DNA from: Bythopirellula sp.
GTDB taxonomy: Bacteria; Planctomycetota; Planctomycetia; Pirellulales; Lacipirellulaceae
Length of the DNA stretch: 64,000 nt
Reading direction: 5' to 3'
NCBI GenBank assembly: GCA_965216565.1
Contig: OZ244170.1
Span: 3,360,001 to 3,424,000 of the forward strand
In this document: in pieces, positions 10,039-57,678 of the stretch
How positions within the stretch are numbered: the stretch's first letter is position 1
Layout: each line of letters starts with the position of its first letter
Translations under genes and position numbers: made by a program
Notes under the pieces: generated by a model
What the model saw: the letters and a program-made list of their open reading frames with translations, nothing else
The model's database searches: none
What the model was told of the DNA's origin: nothing

Positions 10039-12675
10039 ATGGTGCGAAATAGGTTGGGAAAACACAGAAATCCTGTGGTGTTGTTCGGCTCAGTGCTGCT
10101 ACTGAGCGCCGTGGTAGGCGTTTGGCACGCGGAACAGGTCGAGCAGGAGCGCCTTGCGCGGATTTCGGCTTCTAGTTCGTCTTCTGCCCTGTCCATCAAT
10201 GAAGCTGGACAGAACTTCGAGCAAGATATCGAAGAAGAGGCCTATCTGGTCGAAATGCAAAAAGCCCTGGCTCAGGCCGGTTGTCCAGGGTGGATGACGC
10301 TAGCCAGCGAAGGCGAAGCGGCGCTGCACCCTCCAGAATCTGGCGGCGACATCCAGCAAGTCGCGCATGCCCAACCGGTGACAGCAAGTGAACTCACTGA
10401 GAGAACGGTTCCGCGTGTTTCTTATCCCGTCCCGGTAAGAGTTGCCAGCAGGCCGCGGATCTCGGTAGCCTTGCGCGAAGCTCATCCCGTGGCAGGATCG
10501 CCAGAAGATCCCGATGACTTGCTCGATGGCCAACCTGACCTGCTGAGCACCCCTGCAGGAGATCATGCAGAAGAATCAGAACCGCAGGCACCACCGCAAC
10601 CGCCAGCGGAAAGTGCTAGCACGAACGAGAACGTTCCCGAGCAGCCGCAGTCAGCGCCCGCCAATCAGCCAGCACCAAGAGTGCAACCTCCCACCACACC
10701 AGCTCCGCCTGCCGTGGAAGTGCCTCCTTCGGCTACGCAAACTCCCACGATCACCGGGCCCGATCTTAGTTTGCCGTCTGTAGAAATGCCTACGAGTGAA
10801 CAGCCCGTCAATGTCCCGCTTGATTTGACTCCCCCGGCTAAAGAACCCGCGGAGCCGGTCCAGCCCAAGCCCGTCTTCAGCTCCCCGCCAGCTGCCAAAC
10901 AGACAAGCCCCAGTGTCCCGAGACAGGAAACCATCGAGGCGCCTGCGCCGTCTCCATTTTCGCCTCCACCCCGTCCCGCGGCCCCCCACTCGGTTTCTGC
11001 CCCGGCCAAGAAAGACAAGGCAACTTCGCATTGCGAATTCGTGGCACAGAACTGCTTTCCCACTGCCGAGGCATGTTCGAAGTGCCACGAGAAAATCTAT
11101 GACGAATGGCGCGGGTCGAGCCATGCCTACGCGGCCATCTCGCCAATGTTTCATAAATTCGAGCAGAAAATCAACGATCTCTCGCAGGGAACGATCGGCT
11201 ACTTCTGCTATCGCTGTCACATGCCCGTGGGCACCACGATGGGCGTCTCACGCGACGCACCGCTATGGGATTTGCCTCAGGTAGCTCGCGAAGGTGTCAC
11301 CTGTGTGGCCTGCCATCGAGTGAATCAGCGCTATAGCAAGGTCAACGGCGAACGTCGCATCGAGCCAGGCAACATCCACGCACCCGTTTATGGTTCCATC
11401 GGCGGTGGCGGCGTTGCCGAAGTGTTGGCACACAAGAATGAATTCAAGGTGAAGACGCATCCCAACGAGCCTGGCCCGGGACAAGACATTCACGTTGCCG
11501 GCTATTACTTCGATCAATTGCACAAGGCGGAGTTCTGTGTTTCGTGTCACCAGGTGGCCGTGCATCCAGGCATCAAGCTGGAGGTTGTGTGGGAGCAATA
11601 CCGCGCTTCGCCCGCTTGCAAGAAAGGCATCTCCTGTCAGGACTGCCACATGGGTCGGCTCCCGGGCGTGCCTAGCGGTTACGAGTATGATTCAGCCGCC
11701 GTAGTGAATGGCAAGAGTGTTAACAAACATCGCAAGCATGCCAATCACATGTTCTACGGACCGGGCTATTCGATTGCCCATCCCGGCATCTTCCCGCACA
11801 ACCCTAAAGCAAAACGCTGGTCGATGCGCGAGTGGCTGCTGTTCGATTACCGCAATGGCTGGGGAACAGAAGAATTTGAAGAACGAGTTGCCAACGGACA
11901 AATCCGCTTGAATTTCCCGCCAGTGTGGGCAGAAGCCGACGACCGCTACGATGCTCGCGAGATCGTCGAGGACAACCAAACGAAGCTATCCGAAAAGGCG
12001 TTGATGCGTCAGCAGCTGATGGAAAACGGATCGCATGTGGATGGACCCTTCTTCGATGGACCCCAAGCGCGCGGTCGCGATTTGGAATTTCACTACATCG
12101 TTACCAACACGAACGAAGGTCATAATCTGCCGAGTGGTTCCTTAGGTGCTCAGCCTCAACTTTGGGCCAACGTGGCCCTTATCGGTCCGCGAGGGAACCG
12201 ACTGTGGGAATCGGGATACACCGACCGGTGGGGGGATGTCGCGGACATCCACTCTGAGGACGTGCGTCATAAAAGAATTCCCTACGACTGGCAACTATTC
12301 AATCTACAAACGATGTTCCTCATTACCGGTGCCAAAGGTACCGACCGTGAGTTCCCCTTACCGGTGAATGTTGACTTCGATCAGCTCCCCTACCTGCGTC
12401 CCGGGGCCCAGCCAATTTCGGTATTGAACCATCCACCGTTTATTCGCATGGAAGGGCGCTCGCTGCCGCCGCTCGGCTCGCGGCAGGTGCCGTACAAAGT
12501 CCCCGGCCACTTGATGCAAGAGCCCGGTTGCTACCGGTTGTCGTTCCGAATGCGAAGCCGAGCCGAACCGATCTACTTCATGCGTTTTTGCGACGCGACC
12601 AAGGAAATGCAACGCGCCATGAATGAATGGATGGTCGACTTTCACCAATCGTCGGTGCAATTCATCGTTAAATAA
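10039..12675 (+). CDS. Pentaheme c-type cytochrome with N-terminal membrane anchor and Pro-rich stalk
   Basis: CSKCH, CYRCH, CVACH, CVSCH, CQDCH; hydrophobic N-terminus; long Pro/Ala/Glu linker; ATG 10039 preceded by AAGGA. Confidence 0.88.
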   Translation: MVRNRLGKHRNPVVLFGSVLLLSAVVGVWHAEQVEQERLARISASSSSSALSINEAGQNFEQDIEEEAYLVEMQKALAQAGCPGWMTLASEGEAALHPPESGGDIQQVAHAQPVTASELTERTVPRVSYPVPVRVASRPRISVALREAHPVAGSPEDPDDLLDGQPDLLSTPAGDHAEESEPQAPPQPPAESASTNENVPEQPQSAPANQPAPRVQPPTTPAPPAVEVPPSATQTPTITGPDLSLPSVEMPTSEQPVNVPLDLTPPAKEPAEPVQPKPVFSSPPAAKQTSPSVPRQETIEAPAPSPFSPPPRPAAPHSVSAPAKKDKATSHCEFVAQNCFPTAEACSKCHEKIYDEWRGSSHAYAAISPMFHKFEQKINDLSQGTIGYFCYRCHMPVGTTMGVSRDAPLWDLPQVAREGVTCVACHRVNQRYSKVNGERRIEPGNIHAPVYGSIGGGGVAEVLAHKNEFKVKTHPNEPGPGQDIHVAGYYFDQLHKAEFCVSCHQVAVHPGIKLEVVWEQYRASPACKKGISCQDCHMGRLPGVPSGYEYDSAAVVNGKSVNKHRKHANHMFYGPGYSIAHPGIFPHNPKAKRWSMREWLLFDYRNGWGTEEFEERVANGQIRLNFPPVWAEADDRYDAREIVEDNQTKLSEKALMRQQLMENGSHVDGPFFDGPQARGRDLEFHYIVTNTNEGHNLPSGSLGAQPQLWANVALIGPRGNRLWESGYTDRWGDVADIHSEDVRHKRIPYDWQLFNLQTMFLITGAKGTDREFPLPVNVDFDQLPYLRPGAQPISVLNHPPFIRMEGRSLPPLGSRQVPYKVPGHLMQEPGCYRLSFRMRSRAEPIYFMRFCDATKEMQRAMNEWMVDFHQSSVQFIVK

Positions 12676-12707
12676 GAACCATTGAATTAGCGACAAGCTC
12701 CCCAGAC

Positions 12708-14591
12708 ATGCCATCGCAATCCCATAGCTTCGAAGCAGCAATACTCAGGCGACTGATTTTGTCGACCCTGATCTTGCTGTCGATGTGTGGGCTAGCAAAG
12801 GCCGAGGCCTCAGGGCAACCTCTCTTTGAAGAGCCGGCAGCTCGCCTGGCTCAACGTTGCGGGCCCTACTCGAATTGTTGGCCGCGAGTTGAGGGACGCG
12901 ATTGCAAAACTTCGCTGCTGCCATCGACCACAACAGGCCCGTTGGAATCGCCCCTATTCGGACCGCCGCAGGTAACGCGTCCGCTAATCGGTCCGCCTCT
13001 ATTGCGACTTCCTCCCGTCCATGGCTGCCCACCCGATAAATGCCCGCCTCCATCTGCGCCGGGCTATATGGCCAGCCCGTTCCGGTTCGGGATCGCTTCG
13101 CCCGTTCCACCAGCAGTGGTTTCGGCGCACGCTCCGCCTTGGGAACAACTGCCCACGCAAGCGGAGCTCAAGGGCAAGGTGATGCGTGCCACGCCGCATC
13201 GTGCCGATTGTCGTAGTTCGCATGGGCAATATAGTAGCGGCGACTTCACGCCCGATCCCTTCTACAATGGCAATTGGGAAGTCTGTCAGGAGTTGGGCAT
13301 CTATGGCAACAAACGTCTCAATCCCGTCCAACGCCCGGCCATCGAATGGGGCTTGCCCTTCTATTTGAATGGCCCCATCCCGCGTTCCGAAACATGGCTT
13401 GGGAAAACCAACCTGGTGCAACCCAAGTTCTATGTCTACGGCGACTACCGGTCGGCGATGGCATACAACGACTTCAACGGCAATGACCAATCTATTTGGG
13501 CGAACCGTTTGAATTTGGATATCGATCTATGGATTACTTCTACAGAGCGATTCCATATGTTCTGGGGACCGCTCGACGAACGGCTCGAATTCACTAGCCT
13601 CGTCTACGACAATGGTGAGGTAAACAGAAACGATGCCTGGGATGGCTGGGACCAGCGTACCGATACGATGTTTTTCGAGGGCGATCTGGGCTACATCCTC
13701 GGCGGACTACAAGGCATCGAAGCCCCCTTCGACCTGCCGTTTGCCGTCGGCTTGATTCCGCTGGTTTATCAAAATGGTATTTGGATCGAAGACGCATTCG
13801 TCGGCGCGGCCATGACGATTCCCGCCAGAAACAACCCGACGCTAGATTGGTCCAACTTTGATACCACTGTGTTTGTTGGCTTTGACGAAGTCACAAACAA
13901 TCAAGCTTTTAACAATGACAACCGTGCCGCCAATATCGTAGGCGTCACGACGCAAATCGAACGTCGGGGCGGGTATTTCGAATTTGGCTACGCCTTTCTC
14001 GATGATGACGAGCAGCTAGGCCGCAGTTTCCATAGCATCGGTGCGTCCTACACCAGACGCTATTTGAATCTCCTTTCCAATTCAGTCCGCACCCTAGTGA
14101 ACACGGGCCAGGACGGGCCGCGCGATTTGCGGCCTGCAGATGGCGTGTTGGTGCTCGTCGAAAATAGCTTCCTCACTCGCAATCCTTACAACGTAATCCC
14201 CTATGCCAACTTCTTTGCCGGCTTCGGTACGCCCCGGTCAGCCGCTCGCCTGCAGGGGCCTCTGAAGAACACCGGCATCAATTTCGAGTCCGACTTGCTC
14301 ACCGGCTACCCTCTGTTGGACGACACAGGGAACAACACCTACGGCGGTGCGATCGGCGTCGATCTCCTGGGCTGGGATTTCGAGCAGCAGTTGATTCTGG
14401 AGTTTGCCTTCTTGCAAGCATTCGACGACGCCGCGAGCCGCGCTGCTCCGGGAGATCAGTATGCCGCCGGTATCCGCTACCAAAAGCCGCTGAGTCACAC
14501 GCTAATTTTCCGCGCCGACGCGATGCATGGCTGGCTGGAAAACGCCGAGGACATCAGCGGTGCCCGCATGGAACTGAGGCGGAAGTTCTAG
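12708..14591 (+). CDS. Putative outer-membrane beta-barrel (porin partner of the cytochrome)
   Basis: Signal peptide, alternating aromatic beta-strand patterns, C-terminal MELRRKF ending in Phe; 32 bp after the cytochrome. Confidence 0.65.
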   Translation: MPSQSHSFEAAILRRLILSTLILLSMCGLAKAEASGQPLFEEPAARLAQRCGPYSNCWPRVEGRDCKTSLLPSTTTGPLESPLFGPPQVTRPLIGPPLLRLPPVHGCPPDKCPPPSAPGYMASPFRFGIASPVPPAVVSAHAPPWEQLPTQAELKGKVMRATPHRADCRSSHGQYSSGDFTPDPFYNGNWEVCQELGIYGNKRLNPVQRPAIEWGLPFYLNGPIPRSETWLGKTNLVQPKFYVYGDYRSAMAYNDFNGNDQSIWANRLNLDIDLWITSTERFHMFWGPLDERLEFTSLVYDNGEVNRNDAWDGWDQRTDTMFFEGDLGYILGGLQGIEAPFDLPFAVGLIPLVYQNGIWIEDAFVGAAMTIPARNNPTLDWSNFDTTVFVGFDEVTNNQAFNNDNRAANIVGVTTQIERRGGYFEFGYAFLDDDEQLGRSFHSIGASYTRRYLNLLSNSVRTLVNTGQDGPRDLRPADGVLVLVENSFLTRNPYNVIPYANFFAGFGTPRSAARLQGPLKNTGINFESDLLTGYPLLDDTGNNTYGGAIGVDLLGWDFEQQLILEFAFLQAFDDAASRAAPGDQYAAGIRYQKPLSHTLIFRADAMHGWLENAEDISGARMELRRKF

Positions 14592-14621
14592 GGTGCACAG
14601 AGTCCACTGCGCGTGTCGTTG

Positions 14622-14918
14622 CTATTGAGATCCCAGATTGAACGGCTTGTCCCGAGCACCATGCACAACGGCAAGGATTTCCGATCTTTGTGATTCGACA
14701 CGGTAAATGATTCGATAAGAACCTTCAATTACTTGCCGTATGTTTGTGTCTTTGAACTCGGGTACGAGTTGGCCCAATTCCGGTGCCGTCGAAATCTGTT
14801 TCGTACGTGCGGTAATACGATCGACCATGCGTAAAGCATATCGTTCCGAATCACCAGCAATGTACTCGTAAATGTCTGTCAGGTGCGAGATAGCGGTAGC
14901 CGTCCATACCACTTTCAT
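14622..14918 (-). CDS. RelE/ParE-family toxin
   Basis: MKVVWTATA..LTDIYEYIA...YRIIYRV...ILAVVHGAR pattern. Confidence 0.9.
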   Translation of the reverse strand: MKVVWTATAISHLTDIYEYIAGDSERYALRMVDRITARTKQISTAPELGQLVPEFKDTNIRQVIEGSYRIIYRVESQRSEILAVVHGARDKPFNLGSQ

Positions 14919-15112
14919 AGCTTCAGACCAAACTGTAATCGCAATTGTTCAACATCCACGACGCGATCCTCTGCGGCGTCCTGCATGCCTGATTCAACGC
15001 ACTGTCGCACGTAAATTCGATACATGAGATCGTCCCAAGTCGCATCCTCAGGCAGCTCTTTGATTATTTCAAAAGCATCGGATCTGATGTTTGGCGAGTT
15101 GGCACTAGCCAT
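14915..15112 (-). CDS. Antitoxin of the RelE/ParE module
   Basis: 65 aa ORF (LPEDATWDDLMY...) overlapping the toxin start by 4 nt. Confidence 0.8.
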   Translation of the reverse strand: MASANSPNIRSDAFEIIKELPEDATWDDLMYRIYVRQCVESGMQDAAEDRVVDVEQLRLQFGLKL

Positions 15113-15442
15113 GACTGATTCCTCGAAAAGCCTAGAAAACCGTAGCCGTTAACCCGATTCATTCTACATAACATAGTGCTCCAGGGCGATTATGTTCCTA
15201 CATTCAACGGTTTGCGGTCTTTTGCTTGCACGGGGCTCAAAACCGGCTATCTTGGTAGGTAGAGTTCCATCGGTGAAGTAGCAAAAAATCTGGCAACGCT
15301 AATACAAATAGAATCAACAGTCGAAGGCGTTTGGACATTTCCCGCATAGCGGGGACAGTCCTAACGCCTTTTTCTATTGGCTCGCGAAAATCCTGGCCGG
15401 CGCGTAAGCAACGCGACTCATTTCTTGCCCAGGAACCACTAC

Positions 15443-15514
15443 ATTTACATTGGCAACACTATTTACATTGGCAACACTATTTACATTGGCAACACTACTT
15501 ACATTGGCAGCACT
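15443..15514 (+). repeat. Tandem repeat, 4 x 18 bp (ATTTACATTGGCAACACT)
   Basis: Three identical copies plus ACTTACATTGGCAGCACT, ending directly at the GAGGAG RBS of the next gene. Confidence 0.95.
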
Positions 15515-15531
15515 GAGGAGAAGAGATTCCT

Positions 15532-16134
15532 ATGATTCGAAAGCGTATTAGTCTGCACTTGGTAATCGCATCACTTGTTATCGCACCCGGCGCATCGGCA
15601 CTCGCTCAAACTATTTGGACAGGTCCAGATGTCGTGGTCGACCAGCCGGCCGGCGCGCCTCTCTCGGTCGTCGACGTCCTGATCCCGGGCGTAGCTTCGC
15701 TAACTCGCAATAGCACGGGATTATTGTGCAATACCTTGAATGGTGATACCTGTGCGTCATTTCAGGCGATCCCCTCTGATTTTGAGTTTGCGTTCTCCAA
15801 TCTCAATGGCAACGGTCCGATTGTGTATGGCTCGGCAGCGAACTTTGCGAATTTTACGTTTTCTAACATGGATAGTGCCTTCCCGAACCGGGTGGGCAAC
15901 GATCTGCCGAATCCGCAAAATGGCTTGCCCCCGGTGGCTGGAATTGGGCATCACCTCTCCAGCGATACCTACTTCGACATCGAGTTCTCGAATTGGGGCC
16001 AAGGTCCCCGTGGCAACAATCAGCCCGGTGCCTTCACCTACCGACGTTCTTCCGCCGTGCCGGAGCCGACTTCCATCGCACTTTGCACGCTACTTGGCAC
16101 CTGCGTCTTAGCGAGTGTCCGACAACGAAACTAG
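15532..16134 (+). CDS. PEP-CTERM sorting-domain surface protein
   Basis: Signal peptide; VPEPTS + TM helix + RQR tail. Confidence 0.85.
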   Translation: MIRKRISLHLVIASLVIAPGASALAQTIWTGPDVVVDQPAGAPLSVVDVLIPGVASLTRNSTGLLCNTLNGDTCASFQAIPSDFEFAFSNLNGNGPIVYGSAANFANFTFSNMDSAFPNRVGNDLPNPQNGLPPVAGIGHHLSSDTYFDIEFSNWGQGPRGNNQPGAFTYRRSSAVPEPTSIALCTLLGTCVLASVRQRN

Positions 16135-16288
16135 AAGCAGTTTCAGAATCAATGAGCCGAACGCGCTAGTTGAAAATCCGCCATGGCGGGCGTCGGGTGG
16201 CATCAGAACAACACCTAGACTTACGCTACCCGCGGCTAGCGCCGTCGGCTTACATAGAACTATTTTCGGTTCTTGAAACTGGTTCTAG
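16131..16288 (+). mobile_element. MITE-like element (family A, copy 1)
   Basis: Terminal inverted repeats CTAGAAGCAGTTTC...GAAACTGGTTCTAG; aligns to the reverse complement of 57675-57811. Confidence 0.75.
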
Positions 16289-16311
16289 TACTCCAGCACA
16301 GGATGAGCTTG

Positions 16312-16386
16312 AAAAGGGGACAGGCACGACGACCCGACGTTTGCTCAAACGCAGGTCGTTATCGTGCGTCGAGCCAGTCCCCTTTC
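16312..16386 (+). repeat. GGGGACAGGCAC...GAGCCAGTCCCC palindromic repeat (family B, copy 1)
   Basis: Matches the reverse complement of 62051-62130 at both ends. Confidence 0.75.
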
Positions 16387-16413
16387 TACGACTCCCGGAC
16401 CTGCGCAGTAGTA

Positions 16414-18444
16414 TTAATGTCCCCCCACATGATAGCGATGGCAGGTAAGGCAACTGTCGCCGGCCGCTTGTTGCGTGTGGCACTCCGCGCAGCTTGCACG
16501 GGTGATAGGCTCAAAGCCGTAGACTGCCTTGTGCGGAGAGTCGCCCTCATAGTTCGACTTGGTGATTGCCGTTGTGCTGATCGCATGACAAGCCTGGCAA
16601 TCGGCAAGGCTGGCTTGTGATAAATGGGGGCTGTGATTGAACACGGTGAAGTCGCGTCCACGATCGGTCGACTGTTTCGCCAGCCAATTGATTTCGAACT
16701 CACCGCTCTCTAGCCGATCGAGACTATGACAACTACCGCACTGCCCTGCCGCGGTCGGCACAAGCTGTTGTCGCAAGAGGGGCTCGGCAATCGCTGCGTG
16801 CGTGCCTTCAGCAGCTTCAGCCAACACATCGAGCCACGCAGTCAGAAACGGATCGGCGTGGCCCGTGGGTTGGTAGCGGATCGAAAGCGTCAAGTCGTCG
16901 CGGAACCAACCCCCGGCCGCTACCTTTTGTCGTGCTGCCGCCCGATCTTGGGCGCCTGCCGCAGAACTGTTCGCTGGCGTTGACTGCCGAGGTGGCATTT
17001 TCCGACGCGCCGCGATTTCGGCCGGCAAATCATTCAGCCATTGCGAACTGAGAGCGGCAACGTTCTCTGGCGCCAATCGCGCCGCAAGCCGCGAGAGTTC
17101 CGCCCCGCTGAGATCTCTCCCCAAAAGGGCTTGCAACCGTTCTTCAATCGCTTGCTGGCCGTGCGTTTCCAGATCGTAATATAGCTCCTTGGCTGCCCAG
17201 ACAATCTCAGCGGCAGCCGCTAGTAGCACTTCGTCGTCGGGATCGATGTCGAAAAAGTCGAAATCAACGCCCACTTGTTTCATCGCCGCGGCTGCCTTCG
17301 GATCGCTGGCGATCAGCAGCTTGGTGATTGGAGGCAGTGCTCCGTCGAACTCGTCGCCGGCCTCCGCGGGCCACTGCCCAATCCCATGGCCACTGTCGGC
17401 CAAAGTTTCCGTCTCGAGCATCGGCAATGTAAAGATCGGAACACCTGCCACCCAACTGTTCGCCAAGTCTTCGTCATGGCACTTCGCACACGATGCTTCG
17501 TAAGGCAAAGTTTGCTGGAATGCACCGGTCTCGTCGGTCGTGTGACACAGCGCGCAATCAAAATCTTGTTTCGATTCCACAAAGTGTTTCGCCTGATGCG
17601 AGCTATGATCGAACACAATGCGGGTTCGCCGTTGAGCGGGCCAGGCGGTAAACTCCGGATGATCGGTCGCAAAGCTCTCGTATTGCTCGGCATGACAAGA
17701 TTGGCAGGCCGAGTCGCTCATCCAGCTCAAATTGTGCTCGGCTCCGTGATGTTCGCGATGACACGTGCTGCACGCCAATGGCTCGGTGGGGTCGACATCG
17801 CGGTGAGTCGCAGGCATGACTGTCTCGGATTGGCCACTTGTTAGTAATACCTGCGGTTCGATATTGTGAGCCCACAGCTCGGTCCCCTGCTCGATTTGCT
17901 TGCGGTGGCACTCCATGCAGAGTTCCGACTGGGTGGGCTGCGCCAATTCAGGATGGGTCGCATGGCCGATCCATTCTCCAACCGTCTGATTGCCGGCCGC
18001 ATGACAAGTGGCACAGCGATCGGTCGCGTGCCCCTCGGCCAACAGTTGGGCATGGTGGGTGGTCAGTTCCCCCGGTGCCAGGAACTCGTTCCGCCAGTCG
18101 GCACTCAGAATGACAATCAGTGCCCCCAGCGAAAACAGCAAACACCCCCAAACAAACCGCCGACGCTGCAGACGCAGCGACATCAACGGCTGGCATTGGT
18201 AAATGTGCGAACAATGGCCCTCGGGCGAGGGACCATCGTCGCAAGGACCTCCTCGACCGGGCGAGCGGTTGCACTTCCAGCGCTCCCCTTCCAGCACGGG
18301 GTGGCAAGCCGCCGCTTGCGGACATCGACCCAGCCGCGACGGACCAACCGGGCACGACCCGTGCTCGTCGTCGAGCGCGCACATCCATGCCTGGTTCGGT
18401 CGTTCGTAGGAATCGCCCTGGAAGTCTTGTAATTTGTCTCTCAC
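16414..18444 (-). CDS. Decaheme c-type cytochrome, membrane anchored, with Cys-rich N-terminal domain
   Basis: Ten CxxCH (CATCH, CMECH, CSTCH, CQSCH, CALCH, CAKCH, CGSCH, CQACH, CAECH, CLTCH); likely GTG start at 18444 overlapping the upstream TGA. Confidence 0.88.
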   Translation of the reverse strand: MRDKLQDFQGDSYERPNQAWMCALDDEHGSCPVGPSRLGRCPQAAACHPVLEGERWKCNRSPGRGGPCDDGPSPEGHCSHIYQCQPLMSLRLQRRRFVWGCLLFSLGALIVILSADWRNEFLAPGELTTHHAQLLAEGHATDRCATCHAAGNQTVGEWIGHATHPELAQPTQSELCMECHRKQIEQGTELWAHNIEPQVLLTSGQSETVMPATHRDVDPTEPLACSTCHREHHGAEHNLSWMSDSACQSCHAEQYESFATDHPEFTAWPAQRRTRIVFDHSSHQAKHFVESKQDFDCALCHTTDETGAFQQTLPYEASCAKCHDEDLANSWVAGVPIFTLPMLETETLADSGHGIGQWPAEAGDEFDGALPPITKLLIASDPKAAAAMKQVGVDFDFFDIDPDDEVLLAAAAEIVWAAKELYYDLETHGQQAIEERLQALLGRDLSGAELSRLAARLAPENVAALSSQWLNDLPAEIAARRKMPPRQSTPANSSAAGAQDRAAARQKVAAGGWFRDDLTLSIRYQPTGHADPFLTAWLDVLAEAAEGTHAAIAEPLLRQQLVPTAAGQCGSCHSLDRLESGEFEINWLAKQSTDRGRDFTVFNHSPHLSQASLADCQACHAISTTAITKSNYEGDSPHKAVYGFEPITRASCAECHTQQAAGDSCLTCHRYHVGGH

Positions 18445-19265
18445 AGCACTCCCCCATCGAACAGGTGGGCGAGCACTCCGTGCAATGCCGCGAGTAACAA
18501 GAGTGGATAGGTAAGACCGATGTGCAAGAACAACCACATCTTCAACCGCCACTGCAAAGCGGAGTGAAAGTCGAGATCGTCGCGGCGGCGAATCAACGCG
18601 AACAACTGCTCGCAATACTGCTGTTCGGCGCTGGAAAGGTAACGACCGATTGAAGTGAGGCCTGCCAAATGAGACCGGCGCAATTCGCTGTTAGGCTTCA
18701 GATAGTATCCGAGCCGACGTGGCCGCTCGAAGTATGACTGCAAGTTCTCTGCGTAGTATTCGCCCAAGGTGGTCGCGCCTGAGGAGCGTACCGCCGCCAG
18801 CGCGACTTGCTGGGCCCGCTCCTGCAACTGGCTCCGCAGCATGGGGATGCGCTCGTAAATCACTTCCTCAGCAACGTTGGCCAGCTTGGGTGGCAACGTC
18901 CTGGTCCAATAGAGCCCTAGCAACCCACTGGCAAAGGTTAGCCCATAGAGCACGGCGAGAATCGTCTCCAAACTTCCATTGGGTAACCGCCAGGAAATAT
19001 GCATTCCAAAGACAGCCGCAGATGCCAGGCCGACATAAATATGTGTTTGCAACCAGGCGGCCGAGGACCCCCACGATGCCACCGGGATTTTTTTGCGCAG
19101 ATTATAAGCCGCCAAGAATAGCAGAGCGGCGAGGAGCAGATAGCCTGTCTGGAAATCGGTGCGTGCCAGCCGATAGTCCTGCCAGCGACACCAAATCGCA
19201 ACCGCTGCCACCGCGGCAATCGCAATGGCTGAATTTCGTAGTCTCCGACTGACGAATGATCTCAT
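18441..19265 (-). CDS. Integral membrane protein, ferric-reductase/di-heme cytochrome b-like
   Basis: Several TM helices; two His pairs each 14 residues apart (THIY...GMH and LHIG...ALH). Confidence 0.7.
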   Translation of the reverse strand: MRSFVSRRLRNSAIAIAAVAAVAIWCRWQDYRLARTDFQTGYLLLAALLFLAAYNLRKKIPVASWGSSAAWLQTHIYVGLASAAVFGMHISWRLPNGSLETILAVLYGLTFASGLLGLYWTRTLPPKLANVAEEVIYERIPMLRSQLQERAQQVALAAVRSSGATTLGEYYAENLQSYFERPRRLGYYLKPNSELRRSHLAGLTSIGRYLSSAEQQYCEQLFALIRRRDDLDFHSALQWRLKMWLFLHIGLTYPLLLLAALHGVLAHLFDGGVL

Positions 19266-19315
19266 ACCGATACAAGTGGACTTAGCTAATGGTTCATGTT
19301 GAACGACGACAAATA

Positions 19316-19499
19316 AGCCCGGAGGGCTGACACAACCTTAGCCGGTGCCGTCAGGCACGGGACTCATGGATGAATTAATGGTTAGGCCTGAAAGGCCGAC
19401 ACAGCGATTTTGTGTCGGCCCTTCAGGCCTAGCGTTTCCACGCCTAATACGCACCGGTGGCTCACGCCACCGGCTAAGGTTGTTATAACCCTCCGGGCT
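19316..19499. mobile_element. Non-autonomous palindromic element (REPIN-like) matching the ends of the IS200-type element
   Basis: Nested inverted repeats AGCCCGGAGGG...CCCTCCGGGCT; left and right halves align to 31221-31313 and 31786-31873. Confidence 0.8.
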
Positions 19500-19644
19500 T
19501 AGTGAAAACTGTTTGCTGACTACTCTCAAGTACCGGTAGGCGTTGGGGAATAATCATTTTCAAGACTCAAACTTGAATACTCGTCAACACAACCTAGCGT
19601 CTAGCAGTCTGCATGCGAAGTGCTGGGGGCGAACTGGCGGATTT

Positions 19645-21393
19645 CTACCGACTCACCCACTGGGAAAGTTCCCCCAGGTTACCCAAGTCCAAACGCACCA
19701 GTGCATCGTGGGGACAAGCATTCTGGCATGCAGGCCCCGCAGCGTGATCGGCGCACAGGTCGCATTTAGTTGCCTTGAGAATCGGCTGGCGAGAGGTTTC
19801 ATCGATTAGGATCGCACCCTGCCGGTCTCGGATCTCGACCATCCGAATGTTATCGTACGGACAACTATCCGCGCAGGTGCTACAGCCAATGCACGTCAGG
19901 TCGTTAATGCGGACGGTGCCATCGCCCGTGTCGCGGGCAATTGCCCCGGTCGGGCAACCGATCATACAGACGGGATCGACGCAATGCATGCAGGCATGGG
20001 TCACCATATACTGATTGTGTTGCATTCCGTGCCGTAGGAAACGCGGATTGTTGTCGTGCGTCGCAGCACACGCCCGCACACAATCGTCGCAGCGCGTGCA
20101 GCGATCTAAATCGATCACCATCGCCTCGCGACCGTTCATGAATCGCTTCTCGACGAGAAACTCAAGCAGCGCCGAGTCGACCTGCGGTTGCGGCACGTCG
20201 CTCGAGACTGAGGAATCAATCTCTGTTGTCTGCGGACAATAAAGCGTGTGCTTCTCGACCAAATCGTCTAGTACACTGGCCGAGATATGAGGCATGACAT
20301 GTTTGACGATCGTCTTTTGAGGGATCCGCAACACATCGACATAGCCAAGGGCCCGCAGAGAATTCGACAGTGGCACGGGCTGGCCCTCGCGAATCGAGCG
20401 AATCGTTTCCGCCAAGCCATGAACTTGCCCTTTTCCAAGATAGGCGATCGTTCGATGGCCATGGCCATGGCGATGGCTGAGCCGGGCGAAACCTGCGCGA
20501 ATGAGCGTTAGGCCATCGTTGGGCAGACCTTCCTCGACAATTAATGGCTCGTTCACAATGGCGTCAGCAGCAGGCGATTTGGTCGACGCATCAAACGCCG
20601 CCTGCCATTCAAAATTGCCATGCGTTTCGAACACCGTTGCCTCGGCCACCGCGCTCAGTTCCACTTCCGGCAATGAACCAAACAGCGGTGTTTCGCGCAA
20701 ATGAACCCGCAAGCTGCTTTCGCGGTAGAGACGCTCGATGTGGTTCCGCAGCGCCTCGGTACGGCGCATCAAATCTCTCAGTCCTTGCCAACGAATTTCC
20801 AAGAGCTGCGCGTCGCCATCGGCGAGCACCGTAGCCGCTCGGGGCATCCGCGTCATGGCAGCCAGCTCACCGAAGATTTCGCCCGCGTGCAAGCTCAGCG
20901 TGTGCGACCCGTACAACAATCGCGGCACATCCTGCAAGAAGATTCTCGGGTGCGTCGAATGGTCCGATGTAAATGTATCGGGTTGACCTGTGGCGCCCTG
21001 CGCCGACCATTGGCTGCGAACCTCCGGCAACTTGGGATTCTTCCAAAGCCGCATCATTGAACTGAGCAGACCCGGCTTTGGTTTTTCCGGACGCCCCAGC
21101 AGCAGGTCGTCTAGTCCATCCAGAACGACCTTCACACGCCCAGAGAGCACCAAGAACGCGCTATTTCCATAGTCGCCTTCTCGCACCACGATCGAACCAT
21201 CAGGAAAGTCGACCACCCGCGTGTCGTTACGCAAAATTCCTTCCAAAGGGACCGCCGCAGGAAATTCTTCGGGGTCCATACTCTCGAAAGGCTCGAACTT
21301 GAGCAATCGCTCCACGTCGGCATCGGTCATCGACTGGCCGAAGGGCGCATCCCAGCGCTGAGGTCGTGTGATGGCAATTTCGAGAGGCGCCAT
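19645..21393 (-). CDS. Two cyclic-nucleotide-binding domains fused to a DmsB/NrfC-type 4x[4Fe-4S] ferredoxin
   Basis: VREGDYG, GEIFGELA..PRAATV cNMP motifs; CTRCDDCVRAC, CMHCVDPVC, CIGCSTCADSCP, CDLC...CQNACP. Confidence 0.9.
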   Translation of the reverse strand: MAPLEIAITRPQRWDAPFGQSMTDADVERLLKFEPFESMDPEEFPAAVPLEGILRNDTRVVDFPDGSIVVREGDYGNSAFLVLSGRVKVVLDGLDDLLLGRPEKPKPGLLSSMMRLWKNPKLPEVRSQWSAQGATGQPDTFTSDHSTHPRIFLQDVPRLLYGSHTLSLHAGEIFGELAAMTRMPRAATVLADGDAQLLEIRWQGLRDLMRRTEALRNHIERLYRESSLRVHLRETPLFGSLPEVELSAVAEATVFETHGNFEWQAAFDASTKSPAADAIVNEPLIVEEGLPNDGLTLIRAGFARLSHRHGHGHRTIAYLGKGQVHGLAETIRSIREGQPVPLSNSLRALGYVDVLRIPQKTIVKHVMPHISASVLDDLVEKHTLYCPQTTEIDSSVSSDVPQPQVDSALLEFLVEKRFMNGREAMVIDLDRCTRCDDCVRACAATHDNNPRFLRHGMQHNQYMVTHACMHCVDPVCMIGCPTGAIARDTGDGTVRINDLTCIGCSTCADSCPYDNIRMVEIRDRQGAILIDETSRQPILKATKCDLCADHAAGPACQNACPHDALVRLDLGNLGELSQWVSR

Positions 21394-21408
21394 ATCTGAA
21401 GACTCTTT

Positions 21409-22425
21409 CTATTTGTAATCCTGCGGCGAAGGAAGGTAACTGTCGATCACAGCCAAGTCTTTCCCATTGGCCGTCTCGGCAAACTCACTTGCCGCGGCAC
21501 CAATCTCGTCGGCTGCGTTGACGAGTGCTTCGCTCTGCCCCAGCTTCAATGGCACCGAAAGCGCAGCGTCCACCGCATGGCTGAGATGCTCGTTCGGTAT
21601 CTGCTGAGAGATCTCATAGAGCTTGTGTTTCAACCTGGCAGCACGTTGAGCGGATGCGATGCCGTACACGTCTTTTGAGGTCGCCAACGCGGTGGCTCGA
21701 AAACTCGCTTCCAAGTCTGCCAGCATCCCCACCACATACATCACGCGGAGTCTTTCTATCGACGAGGGCACGTTGCTATTGTTGCCCGAGCGCAAAAAGT
21801 TGTGCCGCACCATTCCCTGCGACCAGGCGACCAATTCGAAATCTCCACTGCCGGTCGGATGGCCGCCGACGTTCACCAGTTGTTCGTCGGGAGCGGAATG
21901 ACAAGTCAGACATTGCCGCGCTATCAAATACAGATTGCTAGGATTATTCATGCCCGCTTCGATGCTGGCTTCAATTCTTTGCTGAGCATGCTCTGCCGAT
22001 TCCTGCGCCTTGGTCGCACTGGGCCCTCCGTAATCGTTGTGTAGTGGCACCCAATCCATTCCGGCACCATGGCACGACTCGCAGGAAATCCCCGAGACAA
22101 CCCTGACCCGCTCACCCTTCTGCTGCTGTGTGTAATGACACTTCACGCACACGTCGTTTCGCTTGACGCTGGAAAGATCGAGCCGCTTGGCGATTTCCTT
22201 CGCTTTTGGATTTCGATGCAGAGTTTCGAATGTCGCAAAGTGCGGAGTTTGCTGCCACTGCTGCACTTCCGACTCGTGGCACTTCGCGCACGATTCGGCT
22301 CCCAGGACCTTTGCGGGATCGCAGTCGATTTCCACACTATATTTACTCTCGGCACGAACGCTGCTCCCTGCGCACAGTGCCCAGCACGCGAGGAGAATAG
22401 CGATCGTTGTTTTACGCACTTTCAT
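21409..22425 (-). CDS. Periplasmic tetraheme c-type cytochrome (c554/c552-like)
   Basis: Signal peptide; CAKCH, CVKCH, CESCH, CLTCH. Confidence 0.88.
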   Translation of the reverse strand: MKVRKTTIAILLACWALCAGSSVRAESKYSVEIDCDPAKVLGAESCAKCHESEVQQWQQTPHFATFETLHRNPKAKEIAKRLDLSSVKRNDVCVKCHYTQQQKGERVRVVSGISCESCHGAGMDWVPLHNDYGGPSATKAQESAEHAQQRIEASIEAGMNNPSNLYLIARQCLTCHSAPDEQLVNVGGHPTGSGDFELVAWSQGMVRHNFLRSGNNSNVPSSIERLRVMYVVGMLADLEASFRATALATSKDVYGIASAQRAARLKHKLYEISQQIPNEHLSHAVDAALSVPLKLGQSEALVNAADEIGAAASEFAETANGKDLAVIDSYLPSPQDYK

Positions 22426-22483
22426 AACCTATTCCGTATTGGCATTTTGTTTCGCATCGAGGAAAAATATCTTCCATGTTTTT

Positions 22484-22523
22484 CCTCCCCTCACCTAACC
22501 TCTCCCCAAAGGGGCGAGGGACT
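22484..22523. repeat. REP-like hairpin
   Basis: CCCCTCACCTAACCTCTCCCCAAAGGGGCGAGGGG intergenic palindrome. Confidence 0.6.
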
Positions 22524-22550
22524 GTAGGAGTAGATATTTTTCCTTGATGC

Positions 22551-23804
22551 TCACGCCTCTAACACCAAGTCTTCTTCCGGCACGGCGATACAAGCCAAAC
22601 ATTCCTTTTCGCTCACCGTGATCCCAGGTTGTTTTATATGAGCAAACTTTCCAGACCGCACCGCCGTTACGCACTGCCCACAGTTCCCGGCTCGGCACCC
22701 GGACTCCAGCCGCACCCCGTTAGACTCCGCGAAATCGAGAAGTGTCGAATCACTTTCTGTCCACACGGCCGCTTTATTTGTCTTCGCAAAGTTGATATTC
22801 CGTGGACCGGTGTTGCGATTCTTGCGATAGCGTTTCACACTCGCTGGACCAAAGGCCTCGAAATATATGTGATCGTCCGGCACACCCCAATCGAGTAACG
22901 CTGGCACCAGGGCTTCCATCATCGCCGGTGGACCACAGATGTAGAAGCGAAAGTTGTTCGACGGTAACACCTCGCGCAGACGCTGCAAATCGATATAGCC
23001 TCGTTGGTCGAAATCGCGTCCATTTCGGTCCCCCGGCATGGGTCGCGAATAGCTCACGTCGAGCTTGATATTGTCGTGCCGACTACATAGGTCGCGCATC
23101 GGCTCAGCAAAGGGATGCTCACGGCTATTGCGAAACCCAGTGAATACATACACCTGTCGTTCGTTGCGGTCGTGCACGATCGAGTTGATCATGCTCATCA
23201 CCGGCGTCACGCCAATTCCGCCCCCAATCAGAACAACAGGCACCTCGTCCCGCGGATCGAGAAAGAAGGCTCCCTGCGGGGCTCGGACGTCGAGTTGCGA
23301 ACCGACCTCCACTTGTTGGTGAAAGTACGTGCTCCCCTGCCCCGGCGGCAATGTCGGATTGTCGGTGGGTGGCTGAGCATGCTTGATCGTTATGCGATAG
23401 TAGTCTTCACGTGGCCGATCGGAGAGGGAGTAACAACGCACCAGCGCCGCTTGTTCGGTGGCAACCGGTAATTCGAACGTCAGATATTGGCCTGGCTCGA
23501 AACGCGCCAAGGGTCGTCCGTCTTCGGGCAGTAGATAATACGACTTACAGTCAATGGCTTCGTCTACGATCGCTGCCACCTGCATGGGCCTGGTTCCTGT
23601 CCAGGCCTTAAGCATCGGCTTGACGGCCCGCGCCCAATTCAACACGGCCCGTAGTTGCTGATCGAATAGTAGTCGCTGATTTCGATAGCGAATTTGCGTC
23701 TGGCCATTTCGCCGACGGGCGCGCCACACCGCCCACAGCAACTGCATTCCAGCTACTCCTAACAGCGCGGTCCCTGCGATTGTGCCCATCGAATGCCAGT
23801 CCAC
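22551..23804 (-). CDS. FAD/NAD(P)-binding oxidoreductase with C-terminal 2Fe-2S ferredoxin and N-terminal TM helix
   Basis: RCYSL FAD motif, GGGIGVTP, YICGPPAMM, FEAFG, CRAGNCGQC...C; start GTG 23804 (alternatives 23789, 23822). Confidence 0.9.
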   Translation of the reverse strand: MDWHSMGTIAGTALLGVAGMQLLWAVWRARRRNGQTQIRYRNQRLLFDQQLRAVLNWARAVKPMLKAWTGTRPMQVAAIVDEAIDCKSYYLLPEDGRPLARFEPGQYLTFELPVATEQAALVRCYSLSDRPREDYYRITIKHAQPPTDNPTLPPGQGSTYFHQQVEVGSQLDVRAPQGAFFLDPRDEVPVVLIGGGIGVTPVMSMINSIVHDRNERQVYVFTGFRNSREHPFAEPMRDLCSRHDNIKLDVSYSRPMPGDRNGRDFDQRGYIDLQRLREVLPSNNFRFYICGPPAMMEALVPALLDWGVPDDHIYFEAFGPASVKRYRKNRNTGPRNINFAKTNKAAVWTESDSTLLDFAESNGVRLESGCRAGNCGQCVTAVRSGKFAHIKQPGITVSEKECLACIAVPEEDLVLEA

Positions 23805-54978: not shown

Positions 54979-57678
54979 ATGGCCGAGCTAAAGACTTTTC
55001 TCTTTACCGACATCTGTCGCAGCGTTGATCTCAAGAACGAGATGATCGGTCGGAGCATGACCGAACGCGACGCGGCGTTTGTTTCTCAAATCCTCTCGCC
55101 CCATCGACTGTACATCGAGCAGGATCTTGCGGAGAACGGGGGACGCGTTGTCTCTACGGCAGGCGATGGACACTTTCTGGTTTTTCAAAATACGGTGCTT
55201 GCCGCCCAGTGGGCTGCCAGCGTCCAACGCCTTCATCACGAGAAACCAATTGAGACCCCCGGCGGCGGAAACGTCGAAGTCCGCATCAGCATGCACGTCG
55301 GCGTGCCACAAGTAGACCCTAACGACCCAGACAATTTTGTCGGCAAGACGGTCGACTACGCAGCACGGCTCAACGACTACGCCAATGGCAGTCAAATCCT
55401 TGTGTCGCGTAGTGTGATGGCCATTCTGGATGACATCGGGCTAGATGGCATCTCATTTCATAATCACGGTCGCCGTCACCTCAAGGGCATTGGACAGGTC
55501 GAAGTTCATGAGTTGCTTTACGATGAAGACGGCCCACGCACTCCCAGGCAACGGCCCCAAAGTCATTCCGACCGCCAGTGGACGGTCATTCCTACCGTCG
55601 GTTTCGAAGGTAGCGAAGGCTCTGGTGATGGGTCCGATGTTTCGCTTGCCGCGCCGCCCAGCTTGAAACGAGCGGGCAACTATCAGCTAGAAGAAGTCCT
55701 CGGCAGCGGCGGCATGGGCGATGTCTACAAGGGCCGACATTTGCAGTTTGGACGAGTGCGGGCCGTTAAGGTGATCAAGCCACAGTATGTGGCCTCCGGC
55801 AATAAAGAAATGATCCGCCGCTTCTATCAGGAAATCAAAGCGGTGGGGACACTGGAACATAAGAATATTGTGGTGGCGATTGACTCCTCCACGCCCGAGG
55901 ATCGATTGCATTATCTGGTGATGGAATACATCGACGGGGTGGCCCTCAACGACTTGGTCGATCAGGCGGGTCATTTTCGCGTTGCTGATGCTTGCGAAAT
56001 CATTCGACAAGCAGCACGAGGGTTGCAATATATTCATCGCAATAACATGGTGCACCGCGACATAAAGCCTTCGAACCTGATGATTTCGCTATTCGATAGC
56101 GATGGCGTGACGTCGAGCACAGCCGTGCCCCACGAGGGCGAGGAGATGGTGGGCGTCGTCAAGATTCTCGACCTGGGTTTGGCATTATTGAACGAGGAGC
56201 AGAACGAACGTCTGACGCGGTTTGATAACAAAGCGATGGGTACCGGCATGTATATGTCGCCCGAGCAATGGAAAACCACCAGCGTCGATATTCGTGCCGA
56301 TATCTACAGCCTGGGTTGTACGCTATATCATTTGTTGGCCGGTAATCCGCCGTTCTTCGATTCTGATCTTCGTCCAGAGAAAGCGCACGAGAAATCGGCG
56401 ATCCCGCCCATTAATACTGGCGACAACATTCCGCGTAAGTTATGGGATGTGTTGCGAAAAATGACCGCCAAGAAGCCCGAGGATCGCTACGCCACGCCAG
56501 CGGAAGTCTCGATGGCACTCACACCTTTTACCGAGGGCAGCGACCTCGTTTCCCTCGTGCGTCAATATGTCGATCCCAATAGTTCACCCAGTTCTATTCG
56601 ACATACCCGCGTCGACTCTGGTGCAGGTGTCGACACCTGGCTATCGCGGGCTACCCATCTTTATCCGACGCGTCGCTGGCTATTCGGTCGCGCCATCCCA
56701 CTACTCTTACTTGGTTTTGGACTAGCGAGTGTGTTTTATGTGATGCAGCAGAATCGCAAGAATACCATTGCCGAGGGAATGCTACGCGAGCGAAAGAGTC
56801 TGCTCAAAAGTGCTGACAATGGCGAAGAGTGGCTCGGCAAAGAGATCACAAAACGGTTTGACATTTTGCTCAAGGCAGCCAGCGACCCACAACTGGGCGA
56901 TTTAATAAAGAATTTCGACGCAGAAGAGGTTCGCAGCCAGGAAGCCGATCACCCGCTCATCGCATGGATCGAGAAACAGCGGAAAGATAATTACGACGAT
57001 GCGCACTCCAGCAGTTGGTTCATCAACGACTCCCAAGGCCGTCAAATCGCTCGACATCCCTTCTTCGAAGACGGGCATATCGTGAACAGTTTTATGGGCG
57101 ATTACTCGCATCGAGACTACTTTCATGGCGAGGACAATCAACGGGAGGAAGATAATACCGAGAGTGTCCGTCCGATCGAGGCACCCAATATCTCGGCGGT
57201 GTATATCAGCAGTAGCAGTGGCAAGCTGAAAGTGGCGTTTTCTGTACCCATCTGGTCGCAGCCCGAAGGAGACGATGAGCCTCAGGTGCTTGGGGTGCTC
57301 TCTTCTTCATTTAATCTAGGCGACTTCGAAGTCTCTGGCCTTCCGCATAGCGAAGGCGAGCAGATTGTGTTGGTCGATATGCGCGTCGACTATTTGGAAG
57401 GTGAAGCCAAGCGGGGATTGATCCTTAACCACGAGCATCAAAGCATCTGGAAAGAAAAAGTGCCGCCGCGAGTTTCCAAGCAGGTTCGCGAGGCAATGCT
57501 GGCCGGGGAGGATCGATTCATTCCCGGTTATCGCGATCCGCTTTCGATTGATGGGGAGAAAACATTCTGGGGTGCTTTCGCCCCGATCGATTACTCGCTC
57601 CGCGACCTAAAAACCGGCCGCATGAGAAAAGTCCCCTCAGGCTGGACGGTGCTGGTGCAGACCGAGGCGATTGAGTAG
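54979..57678 (+). CDS. Class III nucleotidyl cyclase-Ser/Thr kinase-TM-Cache-like receptor
   Basis: LFTD, TAGDG, VRISMHVG, AARL (cyclase); GSGGMG, AVK, HRDIKPSN, DLG, YMSPEQ (kinase); TM; DYSHRDYF, VAFSVPIW (Cache-like). Confidence 0.88.
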   Translation: MAELKTFLFTDICRSVDLKNEMIGRSMTERDAAFVSQILSPHRLYIEQDLAENGGRVVSTAGDGHFLVFQNTVLAAQWAASVQRLHHEKPIETPGGGNVEVRISMHVGVPQVDPNDPDNFVGKTVDYAARLNDYANGSQILVSRSVMAILDDIGLDGISFHNHGRRHLKGIGQVEVHELLYDEDGPRTPRQRPQSHSDRQWTVIPTVGFEGSEGSGDGSDVSLAAPPSLKRAGNYQLEEVLGSGGMGDVYKGRHLQFGRVRAVKVIKPQYVASGNKEMIRRFYQEIKAVGTLEHKNIVVAIDSSTPEDRLHYLVMEYIDGVALNDLVDQAGHFRVADACEIIRQAARGLQYIHRNNMVHRDIKPSNLMISLFDSDGVTSSTAVPHEGEEMVGVVKILDLGLALLNEEQNERLTRFDNKAMGTGMYMSPEQWKTTSVDIRADIYSLGCTLYHLLAGNPPFFDSDLRPEKAHEKSAIPPINTGDNIPRKLWDVLRKMTAKKPEDRYATPAEVSMALTPFTEGSDLVSLVRQYVDPNSSPSSIRHTRVDSGAGVDTWLSRATHLYPTRRWLFGRAIPLLLLGFGLASVFYVMQQNRKNTIAEGMLRERKSLLKSADNGEEWLGKEITKRFDILLKAASDPQLGDLIKNFDAEEVRSQEADHPLIAWIEKQRKDNYDDAHSSSWFINDSQGRQIARHPFFEDGHIVNSFMGDYSHRDYFHGEDNQREEDNTESVRPIEAPNISAVYISSSSGKLKVAFSVPIWSQPEGDDEPQVLGVLSSSFNLGDFEVSGLPHSEGEQIVLVDMRVDYLEGEAKRGLILNHEHQSIWKEKVPPRVSKQVREAMLAGEDRFIPGYRDPLSIDGEKTFWGAFAPIDYSLRDLKTGRMRKVPSGWTVLVQTEAIE

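Follow-up and report, generated by a model that had tools for sequence, protein, structure and literature searches.

To what end, and in which direction, does a planctomycete move electrons between NAD(P)H and a set of multiheme cytochromes encoded beside an outer-membrane barrel? The question is raised by seven genes at positions 10039-23804 of a 64,000-nucleotide stretch of Bythopirellula sp. DNA (assembly GCA_965216565.1, contig OZ244170.1, positions 3,360,001 to 3,424,000), hereafter called the window. Inspection of the open reading frames (ORFs) found all seven genes intact and upheld the inventory of the initial annotation: 19 CxxCH motifs, two His pairs, four sets of [4Fe-4S] ligands and a barrel. 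We give nearly an even chance to the reading that they encode an outward chain, fed by NAD(P)H and ending at a porin-docked periplasmic enzyme. Electrons would pass, through cofactors that the proteins probably bind and in the order given here, from NAD(P)H to PtdC (FAD, 2Fe-2S), PtdE (four 4Fe-4S) and PtdF (two b hemes), hence across the inner membrane, then to PtdG (ten hemes), PtdD (four hemes) and PtdA, where heme 2 would be the catalytic site. PtdA would be docked under the porin PtdB and would likely reduce a small solute admitted through it, and binding of a cyclic nucleotide monophosphate (cNMP) to domain 1 of PtdE would add an optional regulatory layer.

The cluster had initially been thought to match no named system. 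This claim falls, since it fits two published descriptions. He et al. (2017, PMC5566968) described PCC4 as a porin, three periplasmic cytochromes that carry 4, 5 and 10 hemes, and a five-transmembrane (five-TM) protein carrying SGXXG and two WX3HX13H motifs; subgroup I has no Fe-S gene and subgroup II, which includes Planctomycetes, has one in addition. Elbon, Stewart and Glass (bioRxiv 10.1101/2023.11.21.568154) named seven components ptdABCDEFG, stated their function to be unknown and presented the operon as previously undescribed. Both systems were proposed, from genomes, to be electron conduits (PMC5566968; bioRxiv 10.1101/2023.11.21.568154). As in PCC4 subgroup II, we found in the window a porin gene with cytochromes of 4, 5 and 10 hemes, a five-TM protein whose TM4 bears SGXXG and whose TM3 and TM5 each bear WX3HX13H, a PF13247 Fe-S gene (Fer4_11, E 2.7e-9) upstream of the membrane-protein gene, and a FAD/NAD/2Fe-2S gene upstream of the tetraheme gene. 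All seven ptd components match the preprint's descriptions as well (penta-heme protein with beta-sandwich, porin, FAD/NAD(P) oxidoreductase, tetraheme protein, cNMP-4Fe-4S protein, ferric-reductase-like TM protein, decaheme protein). The single co-directional operon of the preprint is not seen in the window, where two halves converge, a layout also found in four of nine genomes of the same family and in loci L100 and L101. The assignment was made by described features, by a homolog of PtdA common to both (5ZE8) and by relatives with collinear D-E-F-G-A-B-C clusters. On these features the window cluster fits PCC4 subgroup II/ptdABCDEFG and appears to be a further member with a lineage-typical convergent layout, so that the two names can be joined.

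The cytoplasmic end can be read with some assurance. PtdC (22551-23804, minus strand) carries FAD, NAD and, at its C-terminus, 2Fe-2S domains by Pfam, and would be an N-terminally anchored FNR-type reductase. In 11 of 11 homologs the FNR and 2Fe-2S motifs are kept, as is an N-terminal hydrophobic and then basic stretch, from which the catalytic domain is probably cytoplasmic; the hydrophobic part lies below the hydropathy cut-off used and was not called as a TM helix. Across relatives, this slot is filled by four different modules: the FNR-2Fe-2S protein PtdC of the window, a 2Fe-2S-FNR reductase (in 8 of the 18 metagenome loci with full flanks), a fused NuoEF-like FMN protein (by Pfam in 8/8 scanned and by BLAST in 13 of 15 loci around a divergent PtdE), and a thioredoxin-reductase-like domain fused to PtdE itself (L179). 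Since four different NAD(P)H modules occupy one slot, the chain appears tied to pyridine nucleotides, and coupling of its cytoplasmic end to NAD(P)H, as supposed in the initial annotation, is well supported by sequence; this is our best evidence, and it bears on the coupling, not on the direction of flow. The next carrier, PtdE (19645-21393, minus strand), in which neither TM segment nor signal was seen, joins two domains of cNMP-binding fold to a DmsB/NrfC-type ferredoxin whose 16 Cys, enough for four [4Fe-4S] clusters, are invariant in 17/17 sequences.

The divergent PtdE belongs to a cluster type of its own (L080-L090, L092, L094, L189; for example L081:4588-14458), in which a PtdF-like protein, a decaheme cytochrome, the NuoEF-like FMN fusion and an extended PtdE are followed by tetra- and pentaheme cytochromes, mostly without PtdAB. 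This PtdE has gained NuoG-like Fe-S domains and has two intact cNMP sites. A literature search on its domain combination found no description of this type. One copy (L090:8173-11349) has an extra C-terminal NUDIX domain.

The membrane step would be taken by PtdF (18441-19265, minus strand; 274 residues, five predicted TM helices). Its residues His75/His89 and His248/His262 are invariant in 21/21 and in 78/78 aligned homologs, and lie in the motifs W71/H75/H89 (TM3) and W244/H248/H262 (TM5), with S113-G117 on TM4. This layout, seen in 78/78, is that of NOX and ferric reductases, and from this His motif we infer a di-heme b protein. The model (pLDDT, the model's own confidence, 89.7) has five membrane helices and a helical cytoplasmic insertion of 120 residues. 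Beyond the membrane, PtdG (16414-18444, minus strand) is a decaheme cytochrome c with a single TM anchor; its most likely start is the GTG at 18444, which overlaps the stop of the upstream gene. Ahead of the first heme, 9/9 close copies have 7-10 Cys; the count is 0-2 for 3 divergent copies. This N-terminal segment, probably cytoplasmic, may hold a metal site, one that goes unmentioned in the PCC4 and ptd passages. PtdD (21409-22425, minus strand) is an exported tetraheme cytochrome, c554-like by Pfam.

At the outer membrane, PtdB (12708-14591, plus strand) is predicted to form an 18-stranded barrel (residues 237-626, C-terminal Phe, pLDDT near 90) behind a Pro-rich, disordered N-terminus. The initial annotation had called this protein a barrel, and the model bears it out. 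The closest folds are MOMP (Z 26.3, rmsd [root-mean-square deviation] 3.6, 340 residues aligned) and OpdQ (Z 26.2, 3.0, 325), the MOMP, Occ/OprD and AlgE channels as a class scoring Z 23-26, against Z 12.1 (rmsd 8.6, 275 aligned) for MtrB. Loops L3 and L7, which constrict OprD-type pores, are the best conserved (0.78 each; others 0.51-0.70). No family in Pfam or NCBIfam matched PtdB, and the MtrB family (PF11854) had no match in PtdB or elsewhere in the genome, which is 94% complete. An Atlas feature search with PtdA and PtdB returned multiheme cytochromes and alginate-export-like barrels.

PtdA and PtdB, whose pairing the initial annotation had put forward for checking, are predicted to bind. 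With PtdB 205-627 and the heme and sandwich domains of PtdA, and hemes absent from the model, the complex scored 0.85, compared with 0.00 for the best of three controls; at least 66% of contacts recurred between runs, and the partners had pLDDT of at least 84. Among solved pairs 116 of 157 reach the score mark, among mismatched pairs 2 of 215; with the alignments used here, both figures are only roughly valid. We mapped the interface by hand on the model strands from residue lists, not from coordinates. Both termini of the barrel were taken as periplasmic, as is established for outer-membrane barrels. On the PtdB side it comprises segment 205-236, the turns facing the periplasm, residues lining the lumen in its periplasmic half, and loops L3 and L7; none of the listed residues falls in L1, L2, L4, L5, L6, L8 or L9, an unlisted residue being uncertain and not excluded. 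PtdA contributes the surroundings of heme 2 and a heme-free stretch at 440-496 (alignment numbering). The simplest reading of this model is an enzyme docked under the pore and not a heme chain through it.

Which enzyme PtdA (10039-12675, plus strand) might resemble was suggested by profile searches. One match is the cytochrome c552 5ZE8 (E 9e-18), aligned across all five hemes; another, at 98% probability, is a Sec-type homolog of the MccSep family. PtdA shares the MccSep features of five CxxCH and a C-terminal Ig-like domain (beta-sandwich) with a GHxxPxG motif. MccSep is described as a periplasmic polysulfide reductase in which the catalytic heme 2, His/Cys-ligated, lies beside a catalytic Sec, and the MccSep/ExtKL cluster encodes a porin, ExtI, implicated in selenite uptake (10.1101/2025.11.18.688581; PMC13510729, PMC5877670, PMC6148476, PMC11976967). 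PtdA itself is not an MccSep; it scores 19 bits against the family profile, whose cut-off is 250 bits. We note that a Sec-type MccSep/ExtKL gene with an in-frame TGA (L102:1364-2572) was found in one of 250 other Planctomycetota genomes searched.

The initial annotation had named co-occurrence of the two halves of the cluster as one check on its inference. We surveyed 150 other genomes of the same order, which are kin and hence not independent. PtdE was matched in 35, PtdF in 39, and PtdA and PtdB together in one set of 28; ptdA stood directly before ptdB at 30 of 30 places by coordinates, and PtdF was present in all 35 PtdE-bearing genomes. A and B are present in each of the 12 genomes whose PtdE is full-length (45-64% identity). 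The seven genes are complete in nine of ten genomes of the same family, four with the halves tail to tail as in the window and five with the halves 24-195 kb apart. For metagenomes, neighbourhoods of the best 80 of 510 PtdA matches were taken, of which 18 extended 7 kb or more to either side of the match and 62 were too short for the count. Seven of these 18 loci carry C, E and F; eight carry F and the 2Fe-2S-FNR reductase without PtdE, which is the pattern of He's Fe-S-less subgroup I; one has the fusion of PtdE to the thioredoxin-reductase-like domain; and two have A and B alone. Both halves thus stand side by side in 16 of 18, in several gene orders, and on all these counts they belong together. 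Named homologs point to Lacipirellulaceae (Bythopirellula, Adhaeretor and Pirellulimonas among them); a scan of a genome collection with a single PtdF sequence as query found only two loci.

Side observations were also made at these loci. In one relative a DDE transposase sits between ptdD and ptdE (L062:5708-7063). In L096-L099 the PtdA/PtdB pairs stand alone, the sequence retrieved around them holding no ptdCDEFG; their PtdA has a sixth heme, with a PSCyt1 domain in both copies that were scanned. Downstream of ptdB, subgroup I loci carry a CcmH-TPR-like gene (L114:13755-16064, with similar ORFs in L120, L125, L128 and L169) and, in L114, also an aminotransferase class I/II gene, possibly for aminolevulinate (ALA) synthase, suggesting a co-located heme supply.

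Several points weigh against a chain that ends at a docked enzyme. At PtdA, the heme-2 Cys ligand (C239 of MccSep) is missing, Leu514 or Glu515 aligning there with a register uncertain by one residue, and Ser701 takes the place of the Sec/Cys that follows the PxG motif (U325 of MccSep). Because the catalytic Cys and Sec are both missing, catalysis by PtdA can only be inferred and no substrate can be named. At PtdF, fold matches to di-heme proteins are middling (CybB, a superoxide oxidase, Z 8.2, rmsd 3.5, 132 aligned; 4D2, Z 7.9, 2.6, 101; STEAP4, Z 7.6, 4.2, 150) and are outscored by unrelated helical bundles (Z 11.5); Foldseek returned nothing at E<=0.001, Pfam and NCBIfam nothing above chance for the window protein, and a profile search of solved sequences only unrelated helical proteins. 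Matches to PF01794 (3/21) and PF01292 (9/21) among 21 homologs are weak and below cut-off. The barrel and the complex are models only, and no experiments on the cluster were found in the literature searched. The link of the halves is not obligate either, since a full-length PtdE is missing from 16 of 28 genomes with A and B, and of the 23 genomes that have the divergent PtdE type only 2 carry A and B, the pair being absent from the other 21. Finally, He et al. proposed for PCC4 an inward flow to quinone, through a conduit like Mto/Pio (PMC5566968), and in Geobacter the extHIJKL cluster alone is described as sustaining partial reduction of Fe(III)/Mn(IV) oxides (10.1101/2025.11.18.688581; PMC13510729, PMC5877670, PMC6148476, PMC11976967), which makes metal reduction compatible with a porin-pentaheme architecture. 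On the other side, the heme-2 pocket of PtdA is altered and strictly conserved: Glu is found at 515 in 19/19 and 82/82 homologs, and Ser at the Sec position in 82/82 close homologs (Phe in eight distant alignment rows). Such a pocket seems to fit an enzyme better than a bis-His wire.

The same parts could run in reverse. In the model of He et al., a small donor such as Fe(II), Mn(II) or a reduced compound of N or S would be oxidised by PtdA, with electrons passing inward to quinone or NAD(P)+; PCC4 is reported in genomes of Fe(II) oxidisers and Hyphomicrobium (PMC5566968). The resemblance of PtdD to c554 also speaks for this direction. Cytochrome c554 is the electron acceptor of hydroxylamine oxidoreductase, and modules of the NuoEF and FNR types are reversible in principle. 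A quinone-only route, however, would have no need of the NAD(P)H flavoprotein that is constant here, and characterised proteins of the NOX/ferric-reductase type run outward from NAD(P)H. We consider the inward direction unlikely.

The initial annotation proposed an unbroken wire of MtrAB type that would lead from NAD(P)H to the cell surface, and one is also suggested in the preprint of Elbon et al.; its electrons would go to electrodes, partner cells or solid Fe(III)/Mn(IV). The linkage of barrel and multiheme genes in the metagenome loci and the predicted binding of PtdA to PtdB agree with such a wire, as do the dense packing of PtdG (about 56 residues per heme) and the partial metal-oxide reduction by Geobacter with extHIJKL alone. 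Beside some divergent clusters (L082:1-6301, L083:2515-9312, L190, L191) we also found another barrel-like protein of 760-880 residues with a decaheme cytochrome of about 1350 residues bearing LVIVD repeats. At the outer end, the barrel and its predicted binding to PtdA stand. The MtrAB-type wire is weakened because the 18-strand barrel is OprD/AlgE-like (Z 26 versus 12 for MtrB), with no match to the MtrB family in the genome, because the pentaheme is related to a family of periplasmic enzymes and because the modelled interface is periplasmic, with no outer loop. PtdA moreover spreads its hemes at about 112 residues each, and according to the PCC4 passages of He et al. that system has no extracellular cytochrome (PMC5566968). 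Such a wire is therefore rather improbable to our mind.

Alternatively, the halves may be two separable modules, PtdCDEFG as a general supply of periplasmic reductant and PtdAB as an independent porin-enzyme pair able to use other donors. Their incomplete co-occurrence at the order level and the distances between them in five of nine same-family genomes favour this. Against it, A and B accompany every full-length PtdE, and the halves adjoin in 16 of the 18 metagenome loci in several gene orders. We hold this reading to be quite unlikely.

It remains to place the cNMP domains. In domain 1 of PtdE the phosphate-binding cassette G175-E176...R185 is intact, and the GE...R signature is kept in 27 of 28 scored copies (29 were collected, one of them truncated). 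Domain 2 is degenerate, the window protein having Leu in place of the Arg, and its cassette is intact only in the divergent type. From these residues, gating by a cyclic nucleotide through domain 1 is possible, and in subgroup I PtdE is dispensable, as the eight fully flanked loci without it indicate. The genome has six class III cyclase matches, the nearest to the cluster 31 kb away; in the window, a class III cyclase-like domain is fused to a Ser/Thr kinase at 54979-57678. Cyclase-like genes adjoin loci L076, L101, L107, L141, L180, L080, L084, L088 and L092. We rejected a tight cyclase-cluster link, as these are a minority of loci and the nearest match here is that distant. That the whole is a signalling or redox-poising device, a cNMP-controlled low-flux flow sensing or setting the envelope redox state or making reactive oxygen, is very improbable, since against the conserved cassette and the neighbouring or genomic cyclases stand the PtdE-less loci, the degenerate second domain, the large investment of 19 hemes and the reported high transcription of ptdAB in metagenome-assembled genomes (MAGs) from oxygen-deficient zones (bioRxiv 10.1101/2023.11.21.568154).

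Within the favoured reading of an outward chain to a docked enzyme, we tentatively go further, in a proposal that we ourselves regard as doubtful. PtdAB would represent a novel type of periplasmic enzyme docked to a porin: a pentaheme of MccSep fold in which Cys and Sec have been traded for an invariant Glu/Ser/His pocket, fed by an 18-strand channel. Its power would come directly from NAD(P)H, over a transmembrane chain that needs no quinone and could be switched by a cyclic nucleotide. In the literature passages concerned, PCC4/ptd clusters are read as candidate genes for extracellular electron transfer in iron oxidisers, bacteria of oxygen-deficient zones and planctomycetes. If a substrate porin with a docked enzyme is correct, that reading would be wrong and a widespread redox enzyme would have its substrate still to be found. 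Points for testing are PtdA Glu515, Ser701 and His738, the PtdA-PtdB interface and PtdE Arg185, and close homologs are available in cultured relatives (Bythopirellula, Adhaeretor, Pirellulimonas).

The surroundings of the genes complete the description. The minus-strand run does converge on the ptdAB pair, as initially noted, but does not abut it: the 1.8 kb between the halves hold a ParE/RelE-type toxin gene (14622-14918) with a probable 65-residue antitoxin (14915-15112), both on the minus strand, and a PEP-CTERM-like gene (15532-16134, plus strand, weak family match), insertions that we place outside the system. An 18-nt tandem repeat in four copies (15443-15514) lies directly 5' of the latter. 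A REP-like nested inverted repeat with two genomic sites lies between ptdE and ptdF (19314-19501), and small elements of inverted-repeat type lie at 22454-22550 (about 32 genomic sites) and 16313-16385 (about 13). Promoter and terminator scans stayed at chance level (10 vs 7.3 and 15 vs 16.9). In the 5.2-Mb genome each cluster gene is single-copy, distant domain matches aside; NrfA, a heme-copper oxidase and cytochrome c assembly proteins are also encoded. Among 16 window proteins scanned, molybdopterin and NrfD families had no match, in agreement with the absence initially reported, and an alternative-complex-III or DMSO-reductase-type system was ruled out for lack of such partners.

How, then, does the cluster compare with known systems? 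With the NOX/STEAP/MsrQ domain, PtdF shares two HX13H pairs on TM3 and TM5 and a nearby FNR-type donor; it differs by its five helices, the 120-residue cytoplasmic insertion, the separate reductase and the Fe-S relay. With MtrAB, MtoAB and PioAB the cluster has in common a barrel gene next to multiheme cytochrome genes and a barrel-cytochrome complex, here predicted, whereas PtdB is smaller and of another family and its pentaheme partner is periplasmic in the model. As described for Geobacter, MccSep/ExtKL with ExtI (extHIJKLMNOPQS) likewise combines a periplasmic pentaheme with Ig-like domain, a porin, further multihemes and an inner-membrane cytochrome b; PtdA has neither heme-2 Cys nor Sec and has extra insertions, and ptd has an NAD(P)H flavoprotein where ext has a Rieske/cytochrome b pair. 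A Ferrigenium NHC cluster, as described, is a related three-gene core and was set aside as not the window cluster.

Closest are the two systems to which the cluster fits. Like PCC4 subgroup II, it has the porin, the 4-, 5- and 10-heme cytochromes, the five-TM protein with SGXXG and WX3HX13H, the Fe-S gene just upstream of it, a redox gene upstream of the tetraheme gene and a planctomycete host, but in the window an insertion separates two convergent units. With ptdABCDEFG it shares the seven components and the order C-D-E-F-G, and for PtdA both point to one c552 homolog. The preprint gives the order ABCDEFG, in contrast to the convergent layout of the window, and counts two 4Fe-4S clusters in PtdE, where the 16 invariant Cys would make four. 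The barrel type, the enzyme family of PtdA and the cNMP domains are not given in the PCC4 passages of He et al. Relative to the PCC4 and ptd passages, the barrel type, the active-site changes of PtdA and the predicted docking geometry are new, and together they would offer a testable alternative to the electron conduit.

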